40,811 bases of DNA from a virus (IMGVR_UViG_3300002138_000067:1-40811), one strand, 5' to 3'. Positions 2,292 to 33,428 are shown, counted from the first letter of the stretch. The notes: generated by a model not told the origin, from the sequence alone. Made by a program: numbers and translations.

Positions 2292-5200
2292 ATGGCAAAT
2301 CTAACTGTAGAACAGTTTGGAGCAACGATAAAACAGAAACACCCACAATATGCGAATGTTCCTGACTATGAGCTGGGCAGGGCCACACTACAAAAGTACC
2401 CACAGTATCAGAGCCAGGTTGAAGTTGCAAAAGATTACAACGTACCAGAAATCCCTGGTGCGAAGGCTAATCGTATTGCAGAGGAGAATGCAAAGCTCGC
2501 CACAGAGGCAAAGCAAGCCAACTCGCCACTAGGGTTCGCTGCAAACTTCGGTAAAGCACTTGTCTCTAATCTCGTACCAAGTGAGGTAGGTCTAGGGCAG
2601 AGTCTACAGAAGATATACGGTAATCAGGGCGCAACATACTCAAAACAAATTGAGCAACTTTCTGGCACTCAGCAGATGACCGCTAAGGCTATCCGTGAGA
2701 AGGAGGCTAAGGGTGGGGATGCAACGAAACTCAAGCAGATTTACAACGACAACGCGACTATGCTTCGTCAGCTTCAAGGCGACTTGAAAGACGAGACGAC
2801 ACTACCCACGACAGGACAGGTCGCTGGACAACTTGGAGGTACGGCTCTTGACCTACTCACGGCAGGTACATACGGAAAAGCAACACAGGGTATGCAGGCA
2901 GGGAAGCTAGCGGTGCAAGGCAAGGCAAGTCTTGGCCTCGCTAACAAAACTGGCATACCATCAAACCTTGTACCCAAGGCAACGAGCAACGTGCCAACTT
3001 TCGCAACCGCAGCAGGTATCCCTGAGCTGGCCCAGATTGCACGACAAAAGTCAGCAGGACTGTTCACAAAGCAGGGACTTGGTAACGTTGCCGTAGGTGG
3101 TGGTATCGGATACGGGTTTGACGTTACACAAGGTCTTCAGGGCAACCGTGGAGAGGAGAGGACAGGTGCTAGTGCATTTATCCCTGGCGTGGGAACTGCT
3201 ATTGGCGCTGGTATTCCAACAGTTGCTGGTGCTTACCAGAGCATTAAGAACGCACGTAACCCTGTGCTACACGCAGACAAGCTTGTACAACAGAGAGCAA
3301 AGGAGCTGGCCAAGCTTGATAGCTACCAACCACTCAAGAAAGCCACGGAAAAGGGACGAGCACGTGGTATAGATGTGCAAAAAGTGCTATCTGAGACAGA
3401 CGTCCTCCACGGCTCGGTGGATAAAACAGGCACCATAACTACTAAGGGTGACGGGGGTGCTGTTGAACAGTACACAAAACAGTTTATTGACGGTAACGAG
3501 AAGATTGTGAGCGAGGCACTCAAGAAGGAGGGAGCAACCTATCCACTCGCAGCGGTAAGGGAGCGTCTACTCGCTGCTGTTGATAAGGCAGGACTGGAAG
3601 GCGAAGCACTTATTAAGGCAAAGAACGCTGTTGAGCGTGAGGTGCGTGGCTATGCACTACGAGCTGACGCAGCAGGGAATGTGCCACTATCTGTCGTGCA
3701 TGATGCAAAGATAAACAAGTACAACAACATCAACTTCTTCGCCAGCGGTAACTCAAAGACCTACGACAAGACTGTTGCTCGTACCTTAAAGGATATTGTG
3801 GAGGAGACAAGCACCGCAATAGATGTGAAAGCCACTAACGCTGAACTGGCCAAGCACTTCGCTGTTATTGACTACCTCAACAAGCTAGACAACAAGAAGG
3901 TAGACGGGGGCAAGCTCGGTAAGTATTTCGCAAGCACTGTGGGGTCAATTGTTGGCTCTCACTTCGGGCCACTAGGTGCCATTGGTGGTGCTGAAGCAGG
4001 AGGACGTATCAAGGGCAATATAATGGCACGTTCATTCTCTGGTAAAACAGGGCGTGTATTTCCACAAGCAGATTCAATAACACAGGCAAAGGCTTTTATG
4101 GAAAAGCCACAACTTGCTCTACCACCAGCACCAGAGGGTGCTCCGAGGAGTTGGATAGGCTCTGGACCCACTATACCCATGGCACCTGCTGGGACTACAG
4201 AGTACGTTGGTACGGGTAAGGCTCTTGGTACTTATGTACCAACACAAAAACCAGGGACCCAATCAGTATTACCAGTAAAGACACAGTTAGCACTTCCTGC
4301 GGTTGGAGAGTCGCCTATACGGCTACCCGCAAAGAATCCAGCACCTGTATTAAACCAGGCGGAGATTGACGCAAAGTATGGTCAATCTAAATCAAATAGC
4401 TTAGGAAGTCGCCAAATAGCCCAGACAACAACCAGTGCTCCTACAACAAATGCCATACCTGAAAGCGTACCACCCAAAAGTGGTAATTCCAAGCCCCTCT
4501 ACGGACTAGCTGGGGGTATCGCACCTGAGACAGACGAGAACGGGAATGTTGTTGGTGTTACCTATAACCCTCTCGGAGCTGTTGTGGGTGTTGGCGCTAT
4601 AGCTGGAGCAGGCAAGTTGAAGGGTGTAGGGAAAGGAAAGACAGCCCCTAAAGTATTTGAAGGTTTCGCTGACCTCTCTACAAAGCTCCTAGAGAAGCTA
4701 AAGGGACGTTCTTCTGTGTCTAAGCAGTTTATTTCTGACCTCACTAACTCTCCCGACCTCAAGCAGACAGAGAAGGATTTGGTGCGCCGTATTTTGGATG
4801 AGGATAGTGGTACGAAGGCATATCACGGGACTAATGAGACATTCGACAACTTCGACACGTCAAAACTCGGCACAAACGAAAAGAACCACGCCGCAAAAAA
4901 TGCTTTCTTCTTCTCTGACAGCAAGCAAACTGCTGGGACATACGGAAAGACAGTCAAGGAGGCACAACTAAAGTTCGATAACCCTGTAACAATAGACGCT
5001 GAAGGGAAGATGTTTGGCGATGTACGAGACTTGATTGACGAAACTGTACTCACGGCAAAAAAGAACGGGAACGATGGCGTAATCATAAAGAACCTAAGCG
5101 ATGAGAAGGACTGGGGTGTCTACAATCCGACCACCCACTATGCAGTTCTCGATACAAAAGCAATTAAAGGAGACCAAATAGACGTACCTACTTTCGCAGA

Positions 5201-23828: not shown

Positions 23829-23912
23829 AGGAACAGTATACCACAGGAGGTGTAATAGTTATCCACACATTAGGCAGGGGGTTGTAATAGAAGCGTGGTG
23901 TATAGTGTACCC

Positions 23913-24845
23913 ATGAAAGAACATATTTGGATTGACTGGCTTAATCGGCGTGGAATTACTAACTCAGTGATTGAAGACTTCGGTCTTTCGTTCGGTTCTC
24001 ACTACTTAATGGGCGATGCAATAACCATACCTGTGTGCAATCAGGATGGTTCTTTTTCTTTTAATAAATACCGCCGTGACCCCCAGCAAGGGGACGTTAC
24101 TCCCAAGTACCTGTATGACAAAGGCTCACGGTCAACGGTCTTCGGTCTAGATAAGATTAAGGACAGCACATCAGTCCTCATAACTGAAGGGGAGCTAGAT
24201 ACTCTGGTGTCATGGTCAAAGAATATCCCTGCCGTTAGCTCTACGGGTGGAGCTGGGACGTTTCCTCCTGACTGGGTTGAGTATTTCACCAATAAGGAGG
24301 TTACGGTGTGCTATGACAATGACAGTGCTGGTGGCGCTGGCATGGTACGGGTGCTTGATATTATCCCCAATGCTTACGTTTTATTCCTCCCTGACCGTCC
24401 TGGTGTAAAGGATATGTCTGACTATGTTGCGGGTGGAGGAGACCTTGCGGAGCTACTTCGTGGGCGGGTTCACTTTAGTAGTTTGCAAGAGGTGATAGAT
24501 GACAGGGCGCTCCGCCTTTCATTATGGCAATCTACTTTCTTTCACGATGCATACATTGAAGCGAATAGTGTGCCCGCATACGTTAGAACAGAGCGCAGGG
24601 AAAGTAAGGATGATTCAGAGATAGAGGCAGCCAAGACATACCCTATAAGCGACCTGTTAAAGTTCGACAAGAATCATAAGGCGCTTTGTATCTGGCACAA
24701 CGAGAAAACACCGTCACTGCATTACTTCAAGAACACCAACACAGTTTACTGCTTCGGTGGGTGTGGTAAACGCGCTGATGCAATAGATGTCTATAGGCAG
24801 ATTAACGGGGCTTCGTTCACAGAAGCTATCAAGGCCCTTGTATGA
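23913..24845 (+). CDS. DnaG-type primase (Toprim) with a C-terminal CHC2 zinc finger
   Basis: Toprim motifs VLITEGELDTLV and VCYDNDSAGG. C-terminal CIWHNEKTPSLHYF...VYCFGGCGKRADAIDVY matches the DnaG CHC2 finger. ATG at 23913 preferred over the track's GTG at 23895. Confidence 0.8.
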   Translation: MKEHIWIDWLNRRGITNSVIEDFGLSFGSHYLMGDAITIPVCNQDGSFSFNKYRRDPQQGDVTPKYLYDKGSRSTVFGLDKIKDSTSVLITEGELDTLVSWSKNIPAVSSTGGAGTFPPDWVEYFTNKEVTVCYDNDSAGGAGMVRVLDIIPNAYVLFLPDRPGVKDMSDYVAGGGDLAELLRGRVHFSSLQEVIDDRALRLSLWQSTFFHDAYIEANSVPAYVRTERRESKDDSEIEAAKTYPISDLLKFDKNHKALCIWHNEKTPSLHYFKNTNTVYCFGGCGKRADAIDVYRQINGASFTEAIKALV

Positions 24846-26008: not shown

Positions 26009-26039
26009 TAGTTATTTTGTTTTTCAAAAGTGGTCGACA

Positions 26040-26076
26040 CACGGTGGCTTAGGTAAGCCACCGTGTTTTTTATTTT
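26040..26076 (+). terminator. Rho-independent terminator after the replication operon
   Basis: 11-bp stem CACGGTGGCTT / AAGCCACCGTG, loop AGGT, then TTTTTTATTTT. Confidence 0.85.
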
Positions 26077-26130
26077 GCTTTTTTTAATGTCAACAAATAA
26101 GCCATTTTTTGTAAGTCGGTTGCCTTTTGA

Positions 26131-26166
26131 GAAAAAGCCAAAAACAAAAAAAGGCTCAACTGAGCC
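26131..26166 (-). terminator. Terminator-like hairpin oriented for the minus strand
   Basis: GGCTC-AACT-GAGCC preceded on the + strand by AAAAAGCCAAAAACAAAAAAA, which is a U tract on the minus strand. The stem is short. Confidence 0.35.
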
Positions 26167-26264
26167 GTGCTGTGATGGGGTTTGTGATTATAACACTTCT
26201 AGCGCCTGTAGGCAGGTCTTGTAGACCAAGCCTACAGGTAAGCTGTCAATAAGTCAAGTCATAG

Positions 26265-26293
26265 TTAACTTCTTTTGGATGGATGTATATACT
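26265..26293 (+). promoter_or_regulatory. Sigma70-like promoter candidate upstream of the structured RNA locus
   Basis: TTAACT (26265-70), 17 nt, TATACT (26288-93). The same -10 hexamer occurs at 20516. Confidence 0.4.
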
Positions 26294-26400
26294 GGTGATG
26301 CGTGGGCAAGGCTCTCTTAGAGGAGTAGGAGTTATCAACAGGTAGGCATTGAACAAAAACAAAAGGGTGCAAGAATAGTAAGAGAGCTCATTGACAATAC

Positions 26401-26504
26401 GTTCTGTGTTTTTGGGGGGACGCGGGTAATAATTGACTGAGCTGAAATGCGAAGCAGAATAACCGACTAGAGGATTAAGTTCCTTCTCCCCACAAGCACA
26501 GAAC
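26401..26504 (+). ncRNA. Structured RNA domain 1 (104 nt), closed by a 20-position helix
   Basis: 26401-20 pairs with 26485-504: 17 Watson-Crick pairs, 2 G.U, 1 T.C mismatch. No ORF. Confidence 0.45.
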
Positions 26505-26599
26505 ACTAGGTACTTCCACTCCGCGAGCCTACGGGTTCGTGGGTAAGTATTCATTCTCTACGACTTCTCACGAGGAGTCGCGGGGTGGGAGTATCTGGT
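26505..26599 (+). ncRNA. Structured RNA domain 2 (95 nt), closed by an uninterrupted 22-bp helix
   Basis: 26505-26 pairs with 26578-99: 18 Watson-Crick pairs and 4 G.U, no mismatch. Inner hairpin CCTACG-GGTT-CGTGGG at 26528-43. Confidence 0.5.
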
Positions 26600-26606
26600 A
26601 CATAAA

Positions 26607-26861
26607 GTTATTGGGTGTTTTTGGGAACAATTCTTTTGAAGGCTCCAACCAAAGTCACGGCACGCAGAAGCTTGCAAGCGTAGTGAAGGCATTTACTACA
26701 AATCATTTAGGGGTAAGGCGCGGTAGTCAATCCGAGGGGGCCTCTTTATGAAAGAAAGCGTGTGTAGACCATATTTGCGACCTAAACCTGTTGCTGTTGG
26801 AGGAACCGCCGAGGAAGTTGAAAGCACGAAAGGAAGAATTGTCCCACAAGCACCTAATAAT
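26607..26861 (+). ncRNA. Structured RNA domain 3 (255 nt), closed by an approximately 28-bp helix
   Basis: 26607-26/26842-61 gives 19 of 20 paired, including 3 G.U. It continues as 26629-37/26832-40 (9 bp, 2 G.U). The domain contains the palindrome GCTTGCAAGC at 26670-79. Confidence 0.45.
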
Positions 26862-26871
26862 CTAGTACATA

Positions 26872-27051
26872 GTTTCTAGGGTTCTGTTCTGGTGTGGCGG
26901 AATAGGTAGACGCACATACGAGGTCGGCCAGCTTACAGACTACCGATATGCGAGGTGACTATACGAGAATAGGTATCCAGTCCTAGTAGCGGAGATATTC
27001 ACTACGAAATGTCTCGTCAAATCCTCGCCACCAGAACAAAACCCTAGAGAC
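26872..27051 (+). ncRNA. tRNA-Leu-like mimic on a 23-position stem (not a canonical tRNA)
   Basis: 26872-94 pairs with 27029-51 (21 Watson-Crick pairs, 1 G.U, 1 C.A). It is followed by a class-II Leu-type U8-G9 and D arm, TGGCGGAATAGGTAGACGC (26895-913). T-stem GCGAG/CTCGC (26950-54/27024-28) carries TCAAATC loop remnants split by an approximately 60-nt insert. No anticodon arm could be built. Confidence 0.5.
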
Positions 27052-27067
27052 AGAATATAGAAACTAT

Positions 27068-27139
27068 TGGGACGTAGCTCAGCGGTAGAGCGGTTCACTG
27101 TTAATGAATTGGTCGCAGGTTCGAATCCTGCCGTCCCAG
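27068..27139 (+). tRNA. tRNA-Asn: tRNA-Asn (anticodon GUU)
   Basis: Cloverleaf built by hand: acceptor TGGGACG/CGTCCCA; D arm GCTC-AGCGGTA-GAGC; anticodon arm GTTCA-CTGTTAA-TGAAT; T arm GCAGG-TTCGAAT-CCTGC; discriminator G. CCA is not encoded. Confidence 0.9.
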
Positions 27140-27172
27140 CCGTGAACTTATTAAATTATTACCGAGAGAAAT

Positions 27173-29752: not shown

Positions 29753-31738
29753 TTGCCATCCATTAAATACACAACACGACAGGAAATAATCCAGCAGGCC
29801 ATTCAAGAGATTCAGTTTGACCGAAACTACAAGCAGGGTAAGGTTCAGAACTGGAAAATCAACGAAGACCTCTACTACGGACGTAAACTGTCTAGTGAAA
29901 CCTCACGCGCTAACGTTGACCTCGGCCAGATGTCAGCATTTATTCATACTCTTCTATCTAAGATAGATAACCCTCTCACGTTTAAGTTCACCAAGCGTAA
30001 GAACAGCCAGCTCAAGCGTGTACAGCGTCTCAATGCGCTCCGTATGGCAGACCAGCAGGAGGATGACTGGGATATTAAGGATATTGTAGGTAAGAAGCAG
30101 GCAGCTATTTATGGTCGTGCTATCTATGGCTACCACGCAGAGTCACAGGACGGATACAAGGCTAACCTTGAGAACGTAGACGTATACGACTTCCTCATTG
30201 ACCCGTCAGCAGGCGGTATAGACATTGAGCGTGCCATGAACATGGGCCGTTACGGTGTTATCAAGATGCGCAAAGACATTGAACAGGGTGTTAAGGACGG
30301 TATGTACCTACGCACCGAGGCAGCAGAGCTACTTGCAGGCAGCGGTAACAGCACCCAGCAGAACCAGGAGACTACTAACCAGAACAACCGCACAAGAGAC
30401 CAGAACGTATGGGTGGTGCAGAAGAACATCGGCAACCCAGACAAGTATCTATTCTGGGAGTGGTACACCACGTACAACGGTGACCGTTACTACCTACTAC
30501 TCTCCGAAGAGCGTGGTACTGCTATCCGTGTAGAGAAGCTCACAGACATCTTTGAGAGCAACCTGTGGCCATTCTGGACATGGGCAGCGTTCCCAGACCT
30601 CACAGAGTTCTGGACACCGTCATTCGCTGACTACGTTCGTGAGGTATTCCTCGCACAGACAGCCAGCATTAACCAGATGCTAGACAACGCTGAACAAATC
30701 AACAAGCCACAGAAGCTCGTCAACGCCTCTAAGATTGAGGACTTGGCTAGCCTAAAGTATCAGCGTGGTGGTAACTACATCGTTACTAAGCAGACTGATG
30801 ACGTTCGTAACGTACTACAGGTACTAGAGACACCAAGCATTGACACACCACTCAAGGTGTATGACCGCCTAGAGAGCATTCAGGAGAAGGCATCGGGTGT
30901 GAACTCAACGGCTAAGGGCGTATCAGACGAGGATAAGGTAGGTATCTACGAGGGTAACGCAGCTAACACTGCTGACCGCTTCGGACTCCTTAACAAGTCC
31001 TACTCATTCGGATACAAGCGATTCGCAAAGCTCTACGAGTGGGGAGTACGTGAACACCTAGCCCGCAAGAAGGCTGTAGACATGATTGGCCCTGAAGGTG
31101 TGGAGATTGAGGAGGTTTCTCGAAGAAACATCTTCTACAAGAACGACACATTCGGTGTAGTCGTTGAGTCATCTAACGCAGAGCTAGCCCTATCAGAAGT
31201 GGACAAGAGAACTAAGATTGCATTCCTAAACTCTATGGTAAACAACCAGAACATTAACTGGAAGAAAGCCTTTGAGATACAGGCATCTATCGCAGGATTC
31301 ACTGAGGACGAGATACGCCAGCTCCTAGACAACTCAGACTTCGGAGACGCAGAGCTTATGAGTGAGGCTGACCGTGACCTTGAGGCACTCCTAGACGGCA
31401 AGCGTATCCAGCCTAACCTAAACGCCACCACAGCCTACAAACAGCGCTTCGTAGACTACATGAAAGACCACGAGGAGGACATTGACGCTGAACAAGCAGC
31501 AATCATCTTCAACTACATGGATAAGCTAGAGCCAATCATCATACAGAACATGGTCTCTATGGCTAGCCAACAGGCACTACGGGCACAACTAGACGCTATT
31601 AAAGCAGGTGCACTTGCTCCTCCAACGGGGGGTGGGGCACCGCAGGGTGGAGCACCGTTACCACCACCACCGCAGGAAGGTCTACCGACCAATGCGGACA
31701 CGATTATCGGGGATAGTAATCAAATTGCACAGCTATGA
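29753..31738 (+). CDS. Portal protein (putative)
   Basis: 661 aa ORF immediately after terL. Pro/Gly-rich C-terminal tail. TTG start, since the first ATG is 58 codons in. No motif-level confirmation. Confidence 0.6.
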   Translation: MPSIKYTTRQEIIQQAIQEIQFDRNYKQGKVQNWKINEDLYYGRKLSSETSRANVDLGQMSAFIHTLLSKIDNPLTFKFTKRKNSQLKRVQRLNALRMADQQEDDWDIKDIVGKKQAAIYGRAIYGYHAESQDGYKANLENVDVYDFLIDPSAGGIDIERAMNMGRYGVIKMRKDIEQGVKDGMYLRTEAAELLAGSGNSTQQNQETTNQNNRTRDQNVWVVQKNIGNPDKYLFWEWYTTYNGDRYYLLLSEERGTAIRVEKLTDIFESNLWPFWTWAAFPDLTEFWTPSFADYVREVFLAQTASINQMLDNAEQINKPQKLVNASKIEDLASLKYQRGGNYIVTKQTDDVRNVLQVLETPSIDTPLKVYDRLESIQEKASGVNSTAKGVSDEDKVGIYEGNAANTADRFGLLNKSYSFGYKRFAKLYEWGVREHLARKKAVDMIGPEGVEIEEVSRRNIFYKNDTFGVVVESSNAELALSEVDKRTKIAFLNSMVNNQNINWKKAFEIQASIAGFTEDEIRQLLDNSDFGDAELMSEADRDLEALLDGKRIQPNLNATTAYKQRFVDYMKDHEEDIDAEQAAIIFNYMDKLEPIIIQNMVSMASQQALRAQLDAIKAGALAPPTGGGAPQGGAPLPPPPQEGLPTNADTIIGDSNQIAQL

Positions 31739-32145
31739 TTGATTTTAAGAAACACAAGTACGAGGTAGTAGAAGCCAGTGCAGAGGATATTGGCGCTACT
31801 AAGATTAAGAAGTCAGGTATTGAGGTAGAGTTCACCCTCGCTCAAGTAGAGGCTGAGTGGGCACCTATCGAAAAGCGGGTAAAGGAGATGGACGCACAGT
31901 TGAAGCTCGCAGAGCAGACACGTGACAACCTCCTAGAGCACCACCCATTCCTAAAGGACTTGACCGAGGAACAGCTATTCACCACTCACATGTACCAGGA
32001 GGCCATGAGCTTCGTTAAGGTACTACCTGAGAAGATTGGCGAGTATGAGGACGCTCTCAAGGAGAGTAAGGAGGAGTACGCCTATATGGTGGACAAGCTC
32101 GGACTCAAGAGCAAAGAGGAAGCAGTAGCAAAGATTGTTGAATAA
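31735..32145 (+). CDS. Head-morphogenesis-region protein, function unknown (136 aa, acidic, helical)
   Basis: ATGA overlap with the portal gene. E/K-rich. Confidence 0.45.
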   Translation: MIDFKKHKYEVVEASAEDIGATKIKKSGIEVEFTLAQVEAEWAPIEKRVKEMDAQLKLAEQTRDNLLEHHPFLKDLTEEQLFTTHMYQEAMSFVKVLPEKIGEYEDALKESKEEYAYMVDKLGLKSKEEAVAKIVE

Positions 32146-32471
32146 TGAGTAACCTATCTAAAGCATTAGAAGAGTTCCCAGAGAACCAGCGGTTGCAGGA
32201 GATTGCAACTGATGCTGATAGTTACGCCTCACTAAGCGCAATAGCCAACCAGGAGGGAGGCAAGCTACTCGTCAAGCTCCTTATGGCAGACATGATGAGC
32301 GCTATCTACGACCTAGAGAGCGGGTATTCAAAGATGCCTGAGATGCAGATGAGAGCAACATTAGCAACGTTCAAGGCTAACCACGACATTGTTCGTGCGT
32401 TACTTCGTGCAGATGGTCAGAAAGACCTAGCACGAGAGGCACTTGAACAAGAGTTAAAGGGACTAAACTAG
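32145..32471 (+). CDS. Head-morphogenesis-region protein, function unknown (108 aa)
   Basis: 1-nt overlap with the previous gene. Helical and acidic. Confidence 0.45.
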   Translation: MSNLSKALEEFPENQRLQEIATDADSYASLSAIANQEGGKLLVKLLMADMMSAIYDLESGYSKMPEMQMRATLATFKANHDIVRALLRADGQKDLAREALEQELKGLN

Positions 32472-32479
32472 TATGTAAC

Positions 32480-32558
32480 GTCCTGGGGTGAACAACCTCT
32501 CTTATGCCCCGTATCCCCGTTCACGGGTAAACATGGGGGAGGTTATCCACCTCGGGAC
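32480..32558 (+). other. Extended 79-nt RNA hairpin in the 219-nt gap before the scaffold/capsid genes
   Basis: 32480-99 pairs with 32539-58 (16 Watson-Crick pairs, 2 G.U, 2 A/C mismatches). Inner pairs CCCC/GGGG (32507-10/32535-38) and CCCG-TTCA-CGGG (32516-27). Confidence 0.5.
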
Positions 32559-32690
32559 ACACTATACAGTTGTCAAGAGTGTGTGTTATTATTGAGGTAG
32601 AAACGGGGGCGTGGAAGCGCCACTTCTATCACGTCTGAGAAACGGTAAAAAACTCCGAAGGGCCACTTCGCAAAAAGGTGAAAGCTACAT

Positions 32691-33428
32691 ATGTCAAAAG
32701 ACACAGAAGCCGTAGTTGAGACCCCTACTGTTCCAGAGTCTCAGGAAGAGGTAGTAGTTGAAGAAACTCCTACTGAGGAAGCTAAGGCACCGACAGCAGC
32801 AGAGGTAATGGCAGAGGCATCTCCACTACCAAAAGCAGAAGCGGTACCACTCGCAACGTTCCTAGATGTCAAGAAAGACAACAAAGAACTACGCGAAGCA
32901 ATAGCGTCCCTCGAAAAGAAGATTGACGCTAACCGAGCAACACCTGTTCAGGTTGGTGACGACCTTCAAGCATTGGCTAGCGAATACGAACTAGACCCAG
33001 CATTCCTATCGAAGCTCACAAACGTCCTCTCGACACGAGCAGAGCAAGCAGCAGAAGCAAAGGTTGCCCCACTTAAGGAAAAAGAGCGACAAGAGAAGAT
33101 TGAAGTAGCTTTCAAAAAAGCCTTCGACCATGCTCTTGAGCTAGCACCAGAATATAGGGACATCGCCAACGCAGACGCTATCAAGGCTCTATCACTTGAC
33201 CCGAGAAACGCAGACAAGACCTTCATAGAAATTATTGAGTCAGTTTACGGAAACGCTATATCTGGCAAGCGTTCTATTGAAACCACAACGCCAGGGGGAG
33301 GAAAGGCTCCAGAATCCCTTGACTTTGCACGAGCAGCGAAAGACCCAGCGTACTTCTCACAGATTATGGCTGACCCTAAGCTGAAGTCTGAGTACAACTC
33401 ATCAATCGTACAACGCAATCGGTTCTAA
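32691..33428 (+). CDS. Scaffolding protein (putative)
   Basis: 245 aa, acidic, Ala/Glu/Lys-rich and helical. Directly upstream of the capsid gene. Confidence 0.55.
   Translation: MSKDTEAVVETPTVPESQEEVVVEETPTEEAKAPTAAEVMAEASPLPKAEAVPLATFLDVKKDNKELREAIASLEKKIDANRATPVQVGDDLQALASEYELDPAFLSKLTNVLSTRAEQAAEAKVAPLKEKERQEKIEVAFKKAFDHALELAPEYRDIANADAIKALSLDPRNADKTFIEIIESVYGNAISGKRSIETTTPGGGKAPESLDFARAAKDPAYFSQIMADPKLKSEYNSSIVQRNRF

Follow-up and report, generated by a model that had tools for sequence, protein, structure and literature searches.

A closing helix used twice in the gene-free leader of a phage packaging operon suggests a family of small-RNA cassettes with exchangeable inserts

Background

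Phage T5 produces stable RNAs of unknown function (RNAIII, RNAIV and RNA2H) that measure 100-170 nt and are encoded among tRNA and HNH endonuclease genes. The attC sites of integrons are imperfect palindromes with a variable centre; their core sites, R'' and R', follow the consensus RYYYAAC and GTTRRRY, and a tyrosine integrase is encoded nearby. RNase III processing stems, known from the early RNA of phage T7 and from the flanks of the 16S and 23S rRNA (PMC6582327), are imperfect stems of about 18-30 bp with single mismatches that border RNAs within a polycistronic precursor. The ideal substrate of the E. coli enzyme has a length of 22 bp, and mismatches at the target site give rise to cuts in a single strand (PMC3867540). 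Small RNAs are also encoded in the leaders of late operons, between the late promoter and the first late genes, as is the case for LPR2 and 6S RNA of phage lambda and for StxS (bioRxiv 10.1101/2024.10.31.621285). GOLLD and ROOL are large and highly folded RNAs from gene-free phage loci beside tRNA genes, and their variable regions may hold tRNAs (bioRxiv 10.1101/2024.12.08.627333). Finally, the PeSL cassettes of T4-type phages consist of promoter-plus-terminator stem-loops around protein genes; the short conserved repeats on either side of the variable DNA are proposed to allow the shuffling of modules by recombination (PMC2839356).

Gene-free stretches beside phage tRNA genes have mostly been ignored, and annotation usually proceeds protein by protein. 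Here we describe such a stretch in an uncultured phage. The window, i.e. the whole stretch of DNA that was analysed (IMGVR_UViG_3300002138_000067:1-40811, 40,811 nt), is a complete phage genome from IMG/VR that consists of a 38,497-bp unit plus a 2.3-kb assembly overlap. An earlier note had pointed out that one closing helix is used twice within it, and had offered as readings a duplicated RNA module, a recognition helix for RNase III or a common protein, a conformational switch, or inverted repeats left by a small mobile element. The reading that we favour, at a probability of roughly 60%, is that the two helices are paralogous clamp stems of a family of phage small-RNA cassettes, that they adopt a local, tandem fold, and that the stem serves as a handle of double-stranded RNA.

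Results

Genomic setting of the array

The repeated helix is part of an RNA array within a gene-free gap of the window (26009-27067; the features are listed in Table 1). The gap is bordered on its 5' side by the genes of a Toprim/zinc-finger primase and a 388-aa protein, and on its 3' side by a tRNA-Asn, three small ORFs, a gp3-type small terminase, the large terminase and an SU10-type portal. The array lies in the 0.9-kb gene-free leader of the packaging operon and comprises domains 1 and 3, which carry the repeated helix, two other long-stem domains and the tRNA-Asn. No RNA-processing enzyme was recognised among the some 30 other ORFs of the phage, and a 94-aa ORF downstream of the array is without relatives in the viral contigs or the protein collection. 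In the primase (23895-24845) the Toprim domain (residues 96-177) precedes the CHC2 zinc finger (residues 254-315), which is the opposite of the usual order in DnaG.

Table 1. Features of the gene-free leader and the RNA array, in coordinates of the window
Feature	Coordinates	Strand	Remarks
Motif TGTCAATAAGTCAAGTCATAGTTA, 3' of a hairpin	26244..26267	+	common to the syntenic relatives L002, L085 and L089, all without the RNA array
29-nt block, gene relic in the window	26307..26335	+	100% identity with the final codons of a 164-aa ORF in L094/L095
Conserved leader just 5' of domain 1	26376..26400	+	43-nt block 26376-26418, into the domain 1 stem, 93% identical to L094
Domain 1 clamp stem, 5' arm	26401..26420	+	repeated core 26406-26416
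Domain 1 insert (cargo)	26421..26484	+	unrelated to the L094/L095 insert at the equivalent site; folding z-score -0.9
Domain 1 clamp stem, 3' arm	26485..26504	+	repeated core 26489-26499
Domain 2, 20-bp stem with four G.U closing a three-way junction	26505..26599	+	from the fold and the comparison with L094/L095
Linker motif TCTGGTACATAAA	26594..26606	+	paralogue TCTAGTACATA at 26861-26871; doubled around the inserted tmRNA in L094/L095
Domain 3 clamp stem, 5' arm	26607..26637	+	repeated core 26615-26625, A26626 bulged
Domain 3 insert (cargo)	26638..26831	+	about 195-213 nt, depending on where the stem ends
Domain 3 clamp stem, 3' arm	26832..26861	+	repeated core 26843-26853
Domain 4	26869..27067	+	conserved outer stem 26869-26886 with 27037-27064 around a tRNA-Leu-like insert
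tRNA-Asn (GTT), last RNA of the array	27068..27141	+	unrelated 317-nt stretch instead in L094/L095

Ahead of the array a motif, TGTCAAnAnGTCAAGTCATAGTTA, with two GTCAA repeats and a hairpin before it, is shared with L002 (4560-4582), L085 (5506-5529) and L089 (5496-5509). In the window a sigma-70-like hexamer pair is found at 26265-26293, and the motif itself is probably a promoter or operator of the downstream late and packaging operon. Its occurrences ahead of the late or packaging genes look like a promoter or operator that is specific for this phage lineage. Since the 24-nt motif precedes the late genes in the relatives too, a probable late promoter or operator would be located 5' of the array.

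Similarity to the RNA locus was absent from the syntenic relatives, i.e. from three loci retrieved via the 388-aa protein (whose closest homologue among 5.8 billion proteins is 72% identical), from 80 loci retrieved via the large terminase and from five fetched contigs. In some syntenic relatives tRNA arrays occupy the same slot, which lies 5' of the packaging genes and represents a hot spot of this lineage for RNA genes. The terminase-related phages L045 and L046 (4039-5185) have eight tRNA genes at this place, and L026 and L033 a tRNA-Met.

The helix and its local fold

The earlier note placed GTGTTTTTGGG at 26406-16 and again at 26615-25, and its partner CCCACAAGCAC at 26489-99 and 26843-53. 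We found both arms at these positions and exact copies of neither anywhere else in the 38.5-kb genome. The mismatch and the wobble are indeed the same in the two helices, which both read G-C, U-A, G-C, U.G, U-A, U-A, U.C, U-A, G-C, G-C, G-C, and the sizes that had been given for the domains are correct as well (104 nt for domain 1, 26401-26504, and 255 nt for domain 3, 26607-26861). When the 898-nt gap was shuffled with its dinucleotides preserved, 7 of 3000 shuffles contained two separate exact 11-mer repeats, a count that was taken before demanding that the repeats be complementary and interleaved. Each 11-bp core is lengthened by pairs that are unique to its own partner, to a stem of 20 positions in domain 1 and of about 30 positions with one bulge in domain 3. 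Expressed as near-continuous double-stranded positions, the stems amount to 19-20 in domain 1, 20 in domain 2, about 30 in domain 3 and at least 23 in domain 4.

For the plus strand of the region 26390-27067 the fold has four domains with long stems and an energy of -253.5 kcal/mol (z -8.4), as compared to -198.7 kcal/mol (z -3.5) for the minus strand. The inserts fold scarcely better than shuffled sequence (z 0.02 to -2.2), so that the stems are the source of the structure signal.

The four arms can pair in either combination, and the earlier note had considered a switch that would use them for a tandem fold at one time and, at another, for a nested one with domain 2 inside it. We hold such a switch to be extremely improbable. 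Forcing the 5' arm of domain 1 on the 3' arm of domain 3 unites the remaining two arms as well, and the resulting four-arm exchange reaches -151.9 kcal/mol, versus -181.8 kcal/mol for the tandem fold. The latter is about 30 kcal/mol better because each arm pairs further with its own partner, through at least 9 extra pairs that are exclusive to it; given the cost of 29.9 kcal/mol and a nested pair probability of about 1e-20, a thermodynamic switch is not credible. Moreover, by the time the 3' arm of domain 3 is transcribed, domain 1 can already have folded, and most members of the wider family described below are solitary hairpins, single in their genome, which implies that the helix works without a second copy. 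According to the folding model, then, each helix forms locally, in the tandem fold.

A second phage with the same scaffold and other inserts

The comparison of homologous loci, which the earlier note had proposed, proved to be the decisive check. By scanning metagenome contigs for both arms we obtained locus L094, which lies on the same 37.3 kb contig as locus L095; this second phage keeps both copies of both arms. The leader, the stems and the linkers are common to the two phages as blocks of 28-49 nt with 93-100% identity, and every stretch that is enclosed by this scaffold is unrelated to its counterpart in the window. Over 12.4 kb the similarity at the protein level is limited to 42% across 52 residues in one small ORF, and the scaffold thus represents an island of near-identity in otherwise unrelated genomes. 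There are three substitutions in or beside the stems (A-U to G.U, U-A to U.G and A.C to G-C), all of which keep or improve the pairing of the plus strand. As judged from the aligned loci, the comparison shows that inserts were exchanged between phages and that the stems and linkers stayed near-identical meanwhile. An identical-protein look-up with the small terminase of L094 returned only identical copies of the same locus.

The 29-nt block that is a gene relic in the window equals positions 1776-1804 of L095, where it encodes the C-terminus of the 164-aa ORF. From this block to the array L095 has about 2 kb, which contain six small ORFs as well as the gene of an HNH endonuclease, as compared to 40 nt in the window; the HNH endonuclease gene is located immediately 5' of the array. 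Since the relic is also 100% identical, the near-identity of the scaffold may reflect recent transfer and not purifying selection, and in that case the turnover of the inserts would be much faster than the rate of point substitutions.

Between domains 2 and 3 the second phage has a full-length tmRNA (predicted by ARAGORN), with the linker TCTGGTACATAA on either side of the insertion as a direct repeat of 12 nt. In Rfam the tmRNA scores 45.8 bits (E 1.5e-16), just below the gathering score of 47, and nothing besides it was found in the L094 locus. It occupies 3337-3692 on the minus strand of L094 (about 4138-4493 of L095) and its predicted tag is AKAIPSPYLAELNLSRGLVLA. In the 317-nt stretch that stands in the place of the tRNA-Asn, the first 120 nt or so constitute a third copy of the clamp (L095 4787-4909), with the helix at 4795-4805 and 4891-4901. 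In this copy positions 5 and 6 have changed on both sides, with the U.G wobble and the mismatch opposite C kept. The earlier idea of a duplicated RNA module therefore stands in so far as the stem is paralogous and belongs to a wider family; it does not extend to the interiors of domains 1 and 3, which are unrelated.

The other parts of the array differ in how much has been kept. In domain 2 the stem and two hairpins are the same in the second phage and only the middle arm differs, with a single substitution in the stem that turns A-U into G.U; this domain may be an RNA in its own right. It holds a hairpin with a UACG loop and has no Rfam match. A linker of the form TCTRGTACATA is found 3' of domain 2 and of domain 3 (26594-26604 and 26861-26871), and it could be a processing or recognition site between the units. 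The sequence TCTGGTAC is also present 25 nt 5' of the stem in the unrelated loci L165 (about 2113) and L173 (about 135).

The insert of domain 3 is unrelated to its 78-nt counterpart in the second phage and without a DNA match in the phage collection; its folding (26636-26833, z-score 0.02) is not better than that of shuffled sequence. A 43-aa ORF (26748-26879) lies inside this insert and continues through the 3' arm, with the Shine-Dalgarno-like sequence GAGGGGG 7 nt 5' of it. The ORF has no tblastn match in the phage collection, and the insert was rejected as a gene fragment. The stem of domain 4 encloses an unrelated 103-nt insert in the second phage. In the window the D-arm of the domain 4 insert matches tRNA-Leu genes as well as unannotated sites in phi3T and other phages, and Bacteroides phage BS-TP2 has the same kind of tRNA-Leu-like RNA with an ordinary 8-bp acceptor stem. 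As the acceptor stem is ordinary elsewhere, the long stems belong to the scaffold and not to the inserts.

The conservation of the linkers besides the stems, and of a three-way junction in domain 2, would also suit a single large RNA of many helices, comparable to GOLLD or ROOL, with the stems and linkers as its core and the interiors as tolerated peripheral expansions instead of cargo. Most inserts are not unusually structured, and both GOLLD and ROOL occur near phage tRNA islands, the variable linker of GOLLD sometimes with tRNAs (bioRxiv 10.1101/2024.12.08.627333). However, a search of the region 26170-27067 against Rfam 15 gave no match to GOLLD, ROOL or any other family at E up to 10, except for one chance-level match to a snoRNA. 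In the window as a whole the tRNA was the sole Rfam hit of note, both with the gathering threshold and with the limit of E 10. Furthermore, the stem occurs alone in other phages, without the remaining scaffold, and one of the inserts belongs to an independent family, the tRNA-Leu-like RNAs, that is found alone elsewhere. We consider one large RNA quite improbable.

A wider family of hairpins

Neither domains 1-3 nor the L095 locus had a blastn match in 50,697 phage records, and scans for exact blocks of the scaffold gave zero matches in the viral contigs and one chance match, in an archaeal MAG, in the genome contigs. A relaxed pattern (GTGTTTTTG...CACAAGCAC) was discarded, as all of its 57 loci were chance matches. 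A generalised pattern (GTGTNNNTGGGG-N55-85-CCCCACNNGCAC) yielded 19 viral contigs, 14 of which contain further members on the basis of covarying positions 5-6 and paired outer extensions.

The family stem is nearly constant and 18-19 bp long. Its outer part is composed of 5-6 freely covarying pairs, a G.U at -2, GUG/CAC and a U.G at 4; its inner part of two covarying pairs, a 1x1 mismatch opposite C at 7, a U-A pair, GGGG/CCCC and a closing G.U. In alignment A3 (17 sequences, 18-pair stem) 94.4% is paired versus 74.6% after shuffling, there are 56 double-sided changes versus 19, and the covariation score is 0.474 versus 0.119, a value that was reached in none of the 500 shuffles; when the partner was slid, pairing dropped to about 50%. 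Because positions 1-4 and 8-12 were fixed by the search pattern in most members, their apparent invariance is partly circular. The positions that the pattern left free pair in 139 of 153 cells, as compared to 78 +/- 7 with permuted arms. The G.U at -2 (11-12 members) and the G.U at 13 (13-14 members) were not imposed by the pattern either, and position 7, also free, is A.C or U.C in 14 of 18. At the level of the aligned sequences, the stem is shown to be selected for pairing on the plus strand, with its non-Watson-Crick features conserved.

Model R1 recovered two members on which it had not been trained: L002 (40.5 bits), a syntenic relative of the window phage that has the element elsewhere in its genome, and L171 (28.1 bits), where it is in tandem with another copy. 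A weaker candidate is L089 (14.5 bits). The GUGU/GCAC core varies in these three; what they retain is the inner UGGGGGAA...UUCCCCA, together with the overall length and the single mismatch. Domain 1 (26398-26507), which was a training sequence, scores 64.2 bits. It has U.G at 4, U.C at 7 and G.U at 13, with C-G at -2, whereas domain 3 has G.U at -2, U.G at 4 and U.C at 7 and is without the G.U at 13. The core of 11 bp is identical in the two, but domain 3 departs from the family at its inner end and in the unusual length of its insert, and R1 did not report it. There was no copy in T5, phi3T, phiSHEF16, BS-TP2 or H1-Guo.

There are one or two copies per genome, and 18 of the 19 inserts differ. 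The insert length is 53-213 nt over all copies; the family range is 53-81 nt, with domain 1 (68 nt) within it and domain 3 (213 nt) well outside. The loci L165 and L173, from related phages that are 89% identical downstream, have the same stem and flanks around unrelated inserts. Rfam gave no match in eight member loci at E up to 0.05, and the inserts had no meaningful matches to either phage genome. A small ORF that would start at an AUG in the conserved stem was discarded, as the frames stop after about 8-17 codons and, judged by eye, have no common product. CRISPR repeats, retron RNA, the pRNA of phi29 and Y RNA were dismissed on account of a misfit in motif or gene context and the lack of an Rfam match.

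The determinants of bacterial RNase P are U-1, G+1:C72, A73 and C74. The conserved U-GGGGG...CCCC-A-C of the stem fits these determinants, and the inner stem might thus imitate the top of a tRNA acceptor stem, with maturation by RNase P and RNase Z and not by RNase III. In such a layout the 5' leader pairs with the 3' ACCA and trailer, U is at -1, G+1 to G5 pair with CCCC(U), A is the discriminator, and the unpaired C is C74. Domains 1 and 3, like the family, contain a sequence of the form U-GGGG...CCCC-A-C, the conserved mismatch keeps the C unpaired, and ACCA is exact in L160, L176, L177 and L002, with ACC in many members; moreover, the neighbours in the arrays are a real tRNA, a tRNA-Leu-like RNA and, in the second phage, a tmRNA. 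Yet the window's own copies have ACAA, and the two bases 3' of the C covary with the leader (CA, CU, AG, CC, AA) and are not kept as CCA. No tRNA was predicted by ARAGORN, be it in domain 1, in domain 3 or at any of the member loci; a common T-arm is lacking among the inserts, which are unrelated, and the acceptor-like helix is just 5 bp long. The conserved outer GUG/CAC and the G.U at -2 would, in addition, be left without a role. We regard mimicry of an acceptor stem, the main rival of the favoured reading, as unlikely.

The arms may also act at the level of DNA, as inverted repeats that form single-stranded hairpins or protein sites, with a recombinase or nuclease that exchanges the enclosed DNA and the RNA structure as a by-product; integron attC sites or the regulatory cassettes of T4-type phages would be the models. 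The earlier proposal of repeats left by a mobile element is borne out in one respect, which is that inserts have been exchanged between phages, with a precise replacement between conserved arms in two independent phage pairs. In the second phage the HNH endonuclease gene adjoins the array and the tmRNA insertion has its direct repeat, the member size of 80-125 nt, the imperfect palindrome and the variable centre recall attC sites, and DNA hairpins tolerate G.T pairs too. The PeSL cassettes illustrate that repeats of conserved motifs can cause modules to be shuffled in phages (PMC2839356). The mobile element itself finds no counterpart in the data, however: the stems are without target-site duplications, no recombinase is conserved beside them, and no neighbouring gene, integrase or transposase is shared across the member loci. 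The three conserved G.U positions weaken the opposite strand (R1 scores of 18-39 bits in reverse versus 55-73 bits forward), the downstream ORFs are on the same strand as the element in nearly all oriented member loci, often at the start of an operon, and the stems of domains 2 and 4 have the same design with a different sequence. We therefore consider a purely DNA-level element unlikely, but cassette exchange at the DNA level could coexist with an RNA role. A pac, cos or origin site was rejected, given the different terminases of the two phages and the G.U asymmetry, which favours RNA.

Discussion

We return to the favoured reading of clamp stems around small RNAs, the family of which is apparently undescribed so far (no match in Rfam 15). 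The array would be transcribed as one precursor together with the tRNA. In this precursor each stem would be a double-stranded handle that insulates the insert during folding and marks it for excision or stabilisation, most likely by the RNase III of the host, and the inserts would be variable effector small RNAs. The near-identical stems and linkers may, moreover, serve as homology arms by which co-infecting phages swap inserts. The stem is probably a processing or stability handle.

The recognition helix for RNase III or for a common protein that the earlier note had suggested is compatible with the conserved wobbles, the mismatch and the length of 18-19 bp. As RNase III has no strict sequence requirement, this enzyme alone does not explain the conserved core, wobbles and mismatch, and a sequence-specific partner of the stem may exist. 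Tentatively, one may think of a sequence-specific handle of which the wobbles and the mismatch are read by a host or phage factor that cuts or loads the hairpin, giving a stable effector RNA (a decoy, sponge or antisense RNA), with phages that trade inserts by way of the constant stems and linkers in an arms race with their hosts or with rival phages.

The locus shows the organisation of a cassette rack, in which a constant, covarying RNA stem holds an insert whose replacement between phages is far faster than change in the stem. Should the stems indeed be processing handles, they would give access to a large and unexplored pool of phage small RNAs, the targets of which could be host defences, host translation or competing phages, and they would offer a natural scaffold for the expression of arbitrary small RNAs in bacteria. 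As the family signature is compact and searchable, its distribution and the RNA ends in infected cells are directly testable.

Comparison with known systems

Like the PeSL cassettes, the clamp brackets variable sequence between short conserved repeats. The difference lies in the nature of these repeats, which in the clamp are the two arms of a long RNA helix around a non-coding insert. The R''/R' consensus of integron attC sites is absent from the arms, and neither the window nor the surroundings of the member loci yielded an integrase. The array shares with GOLLD and ROOL its position in a gene-free phage locus beside tRNA genes and its extensive folding, but it lacks a covariance-model match to them, and its clamp unit is a single hairpin that is also found alone.

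The window array has the same position as the late-operon leader RNAs of lambda and StxS. No copy of the motif was present in the lambda region 44000-46000. The leader RNAs of lambda are bound by Hfq and were defined by experiment, whereas the small RNAs of the array are predicted from the sequence.

The RNase III processing stems come close to the clamp in being imperfect, RNA-flanking helices with single mismatches, and the clamp stem, at 18-19 bp, approaches the 22-bp ideal of the enzyme. RNase III substrates have about two turns of double-stranded RNA that is nearly continuous, which also holds for the stems of the four domains, and their cleavage leaves 3' overhangs of 2 nt. The array is likened to their polycistronic precursors, with its cleavage as a prediction. 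The clamp differs in that unrelated phages share its defined core, its three fixed wobbles and its one fixed mismatch, features that RNase III, which needs no particular sequence, does not demand, and in that the enclosed RNA is another one in almost every copy.

The stable RNAs of phage T5 share both the setting, among tRNA and HNH endonuclease genes, and the architecture. RNAIII, RNAIV and RNA2H (L179, T5 record 30284-33083) each fold with a closing stem of about 18 bp and a branched interior. Their stems have other sequences; the core motif does not occur, and a search of the complete T5 genome with R1 gave zero matches. The stable RNAs of T5 are not a member of the family but its analogue in design and setting.
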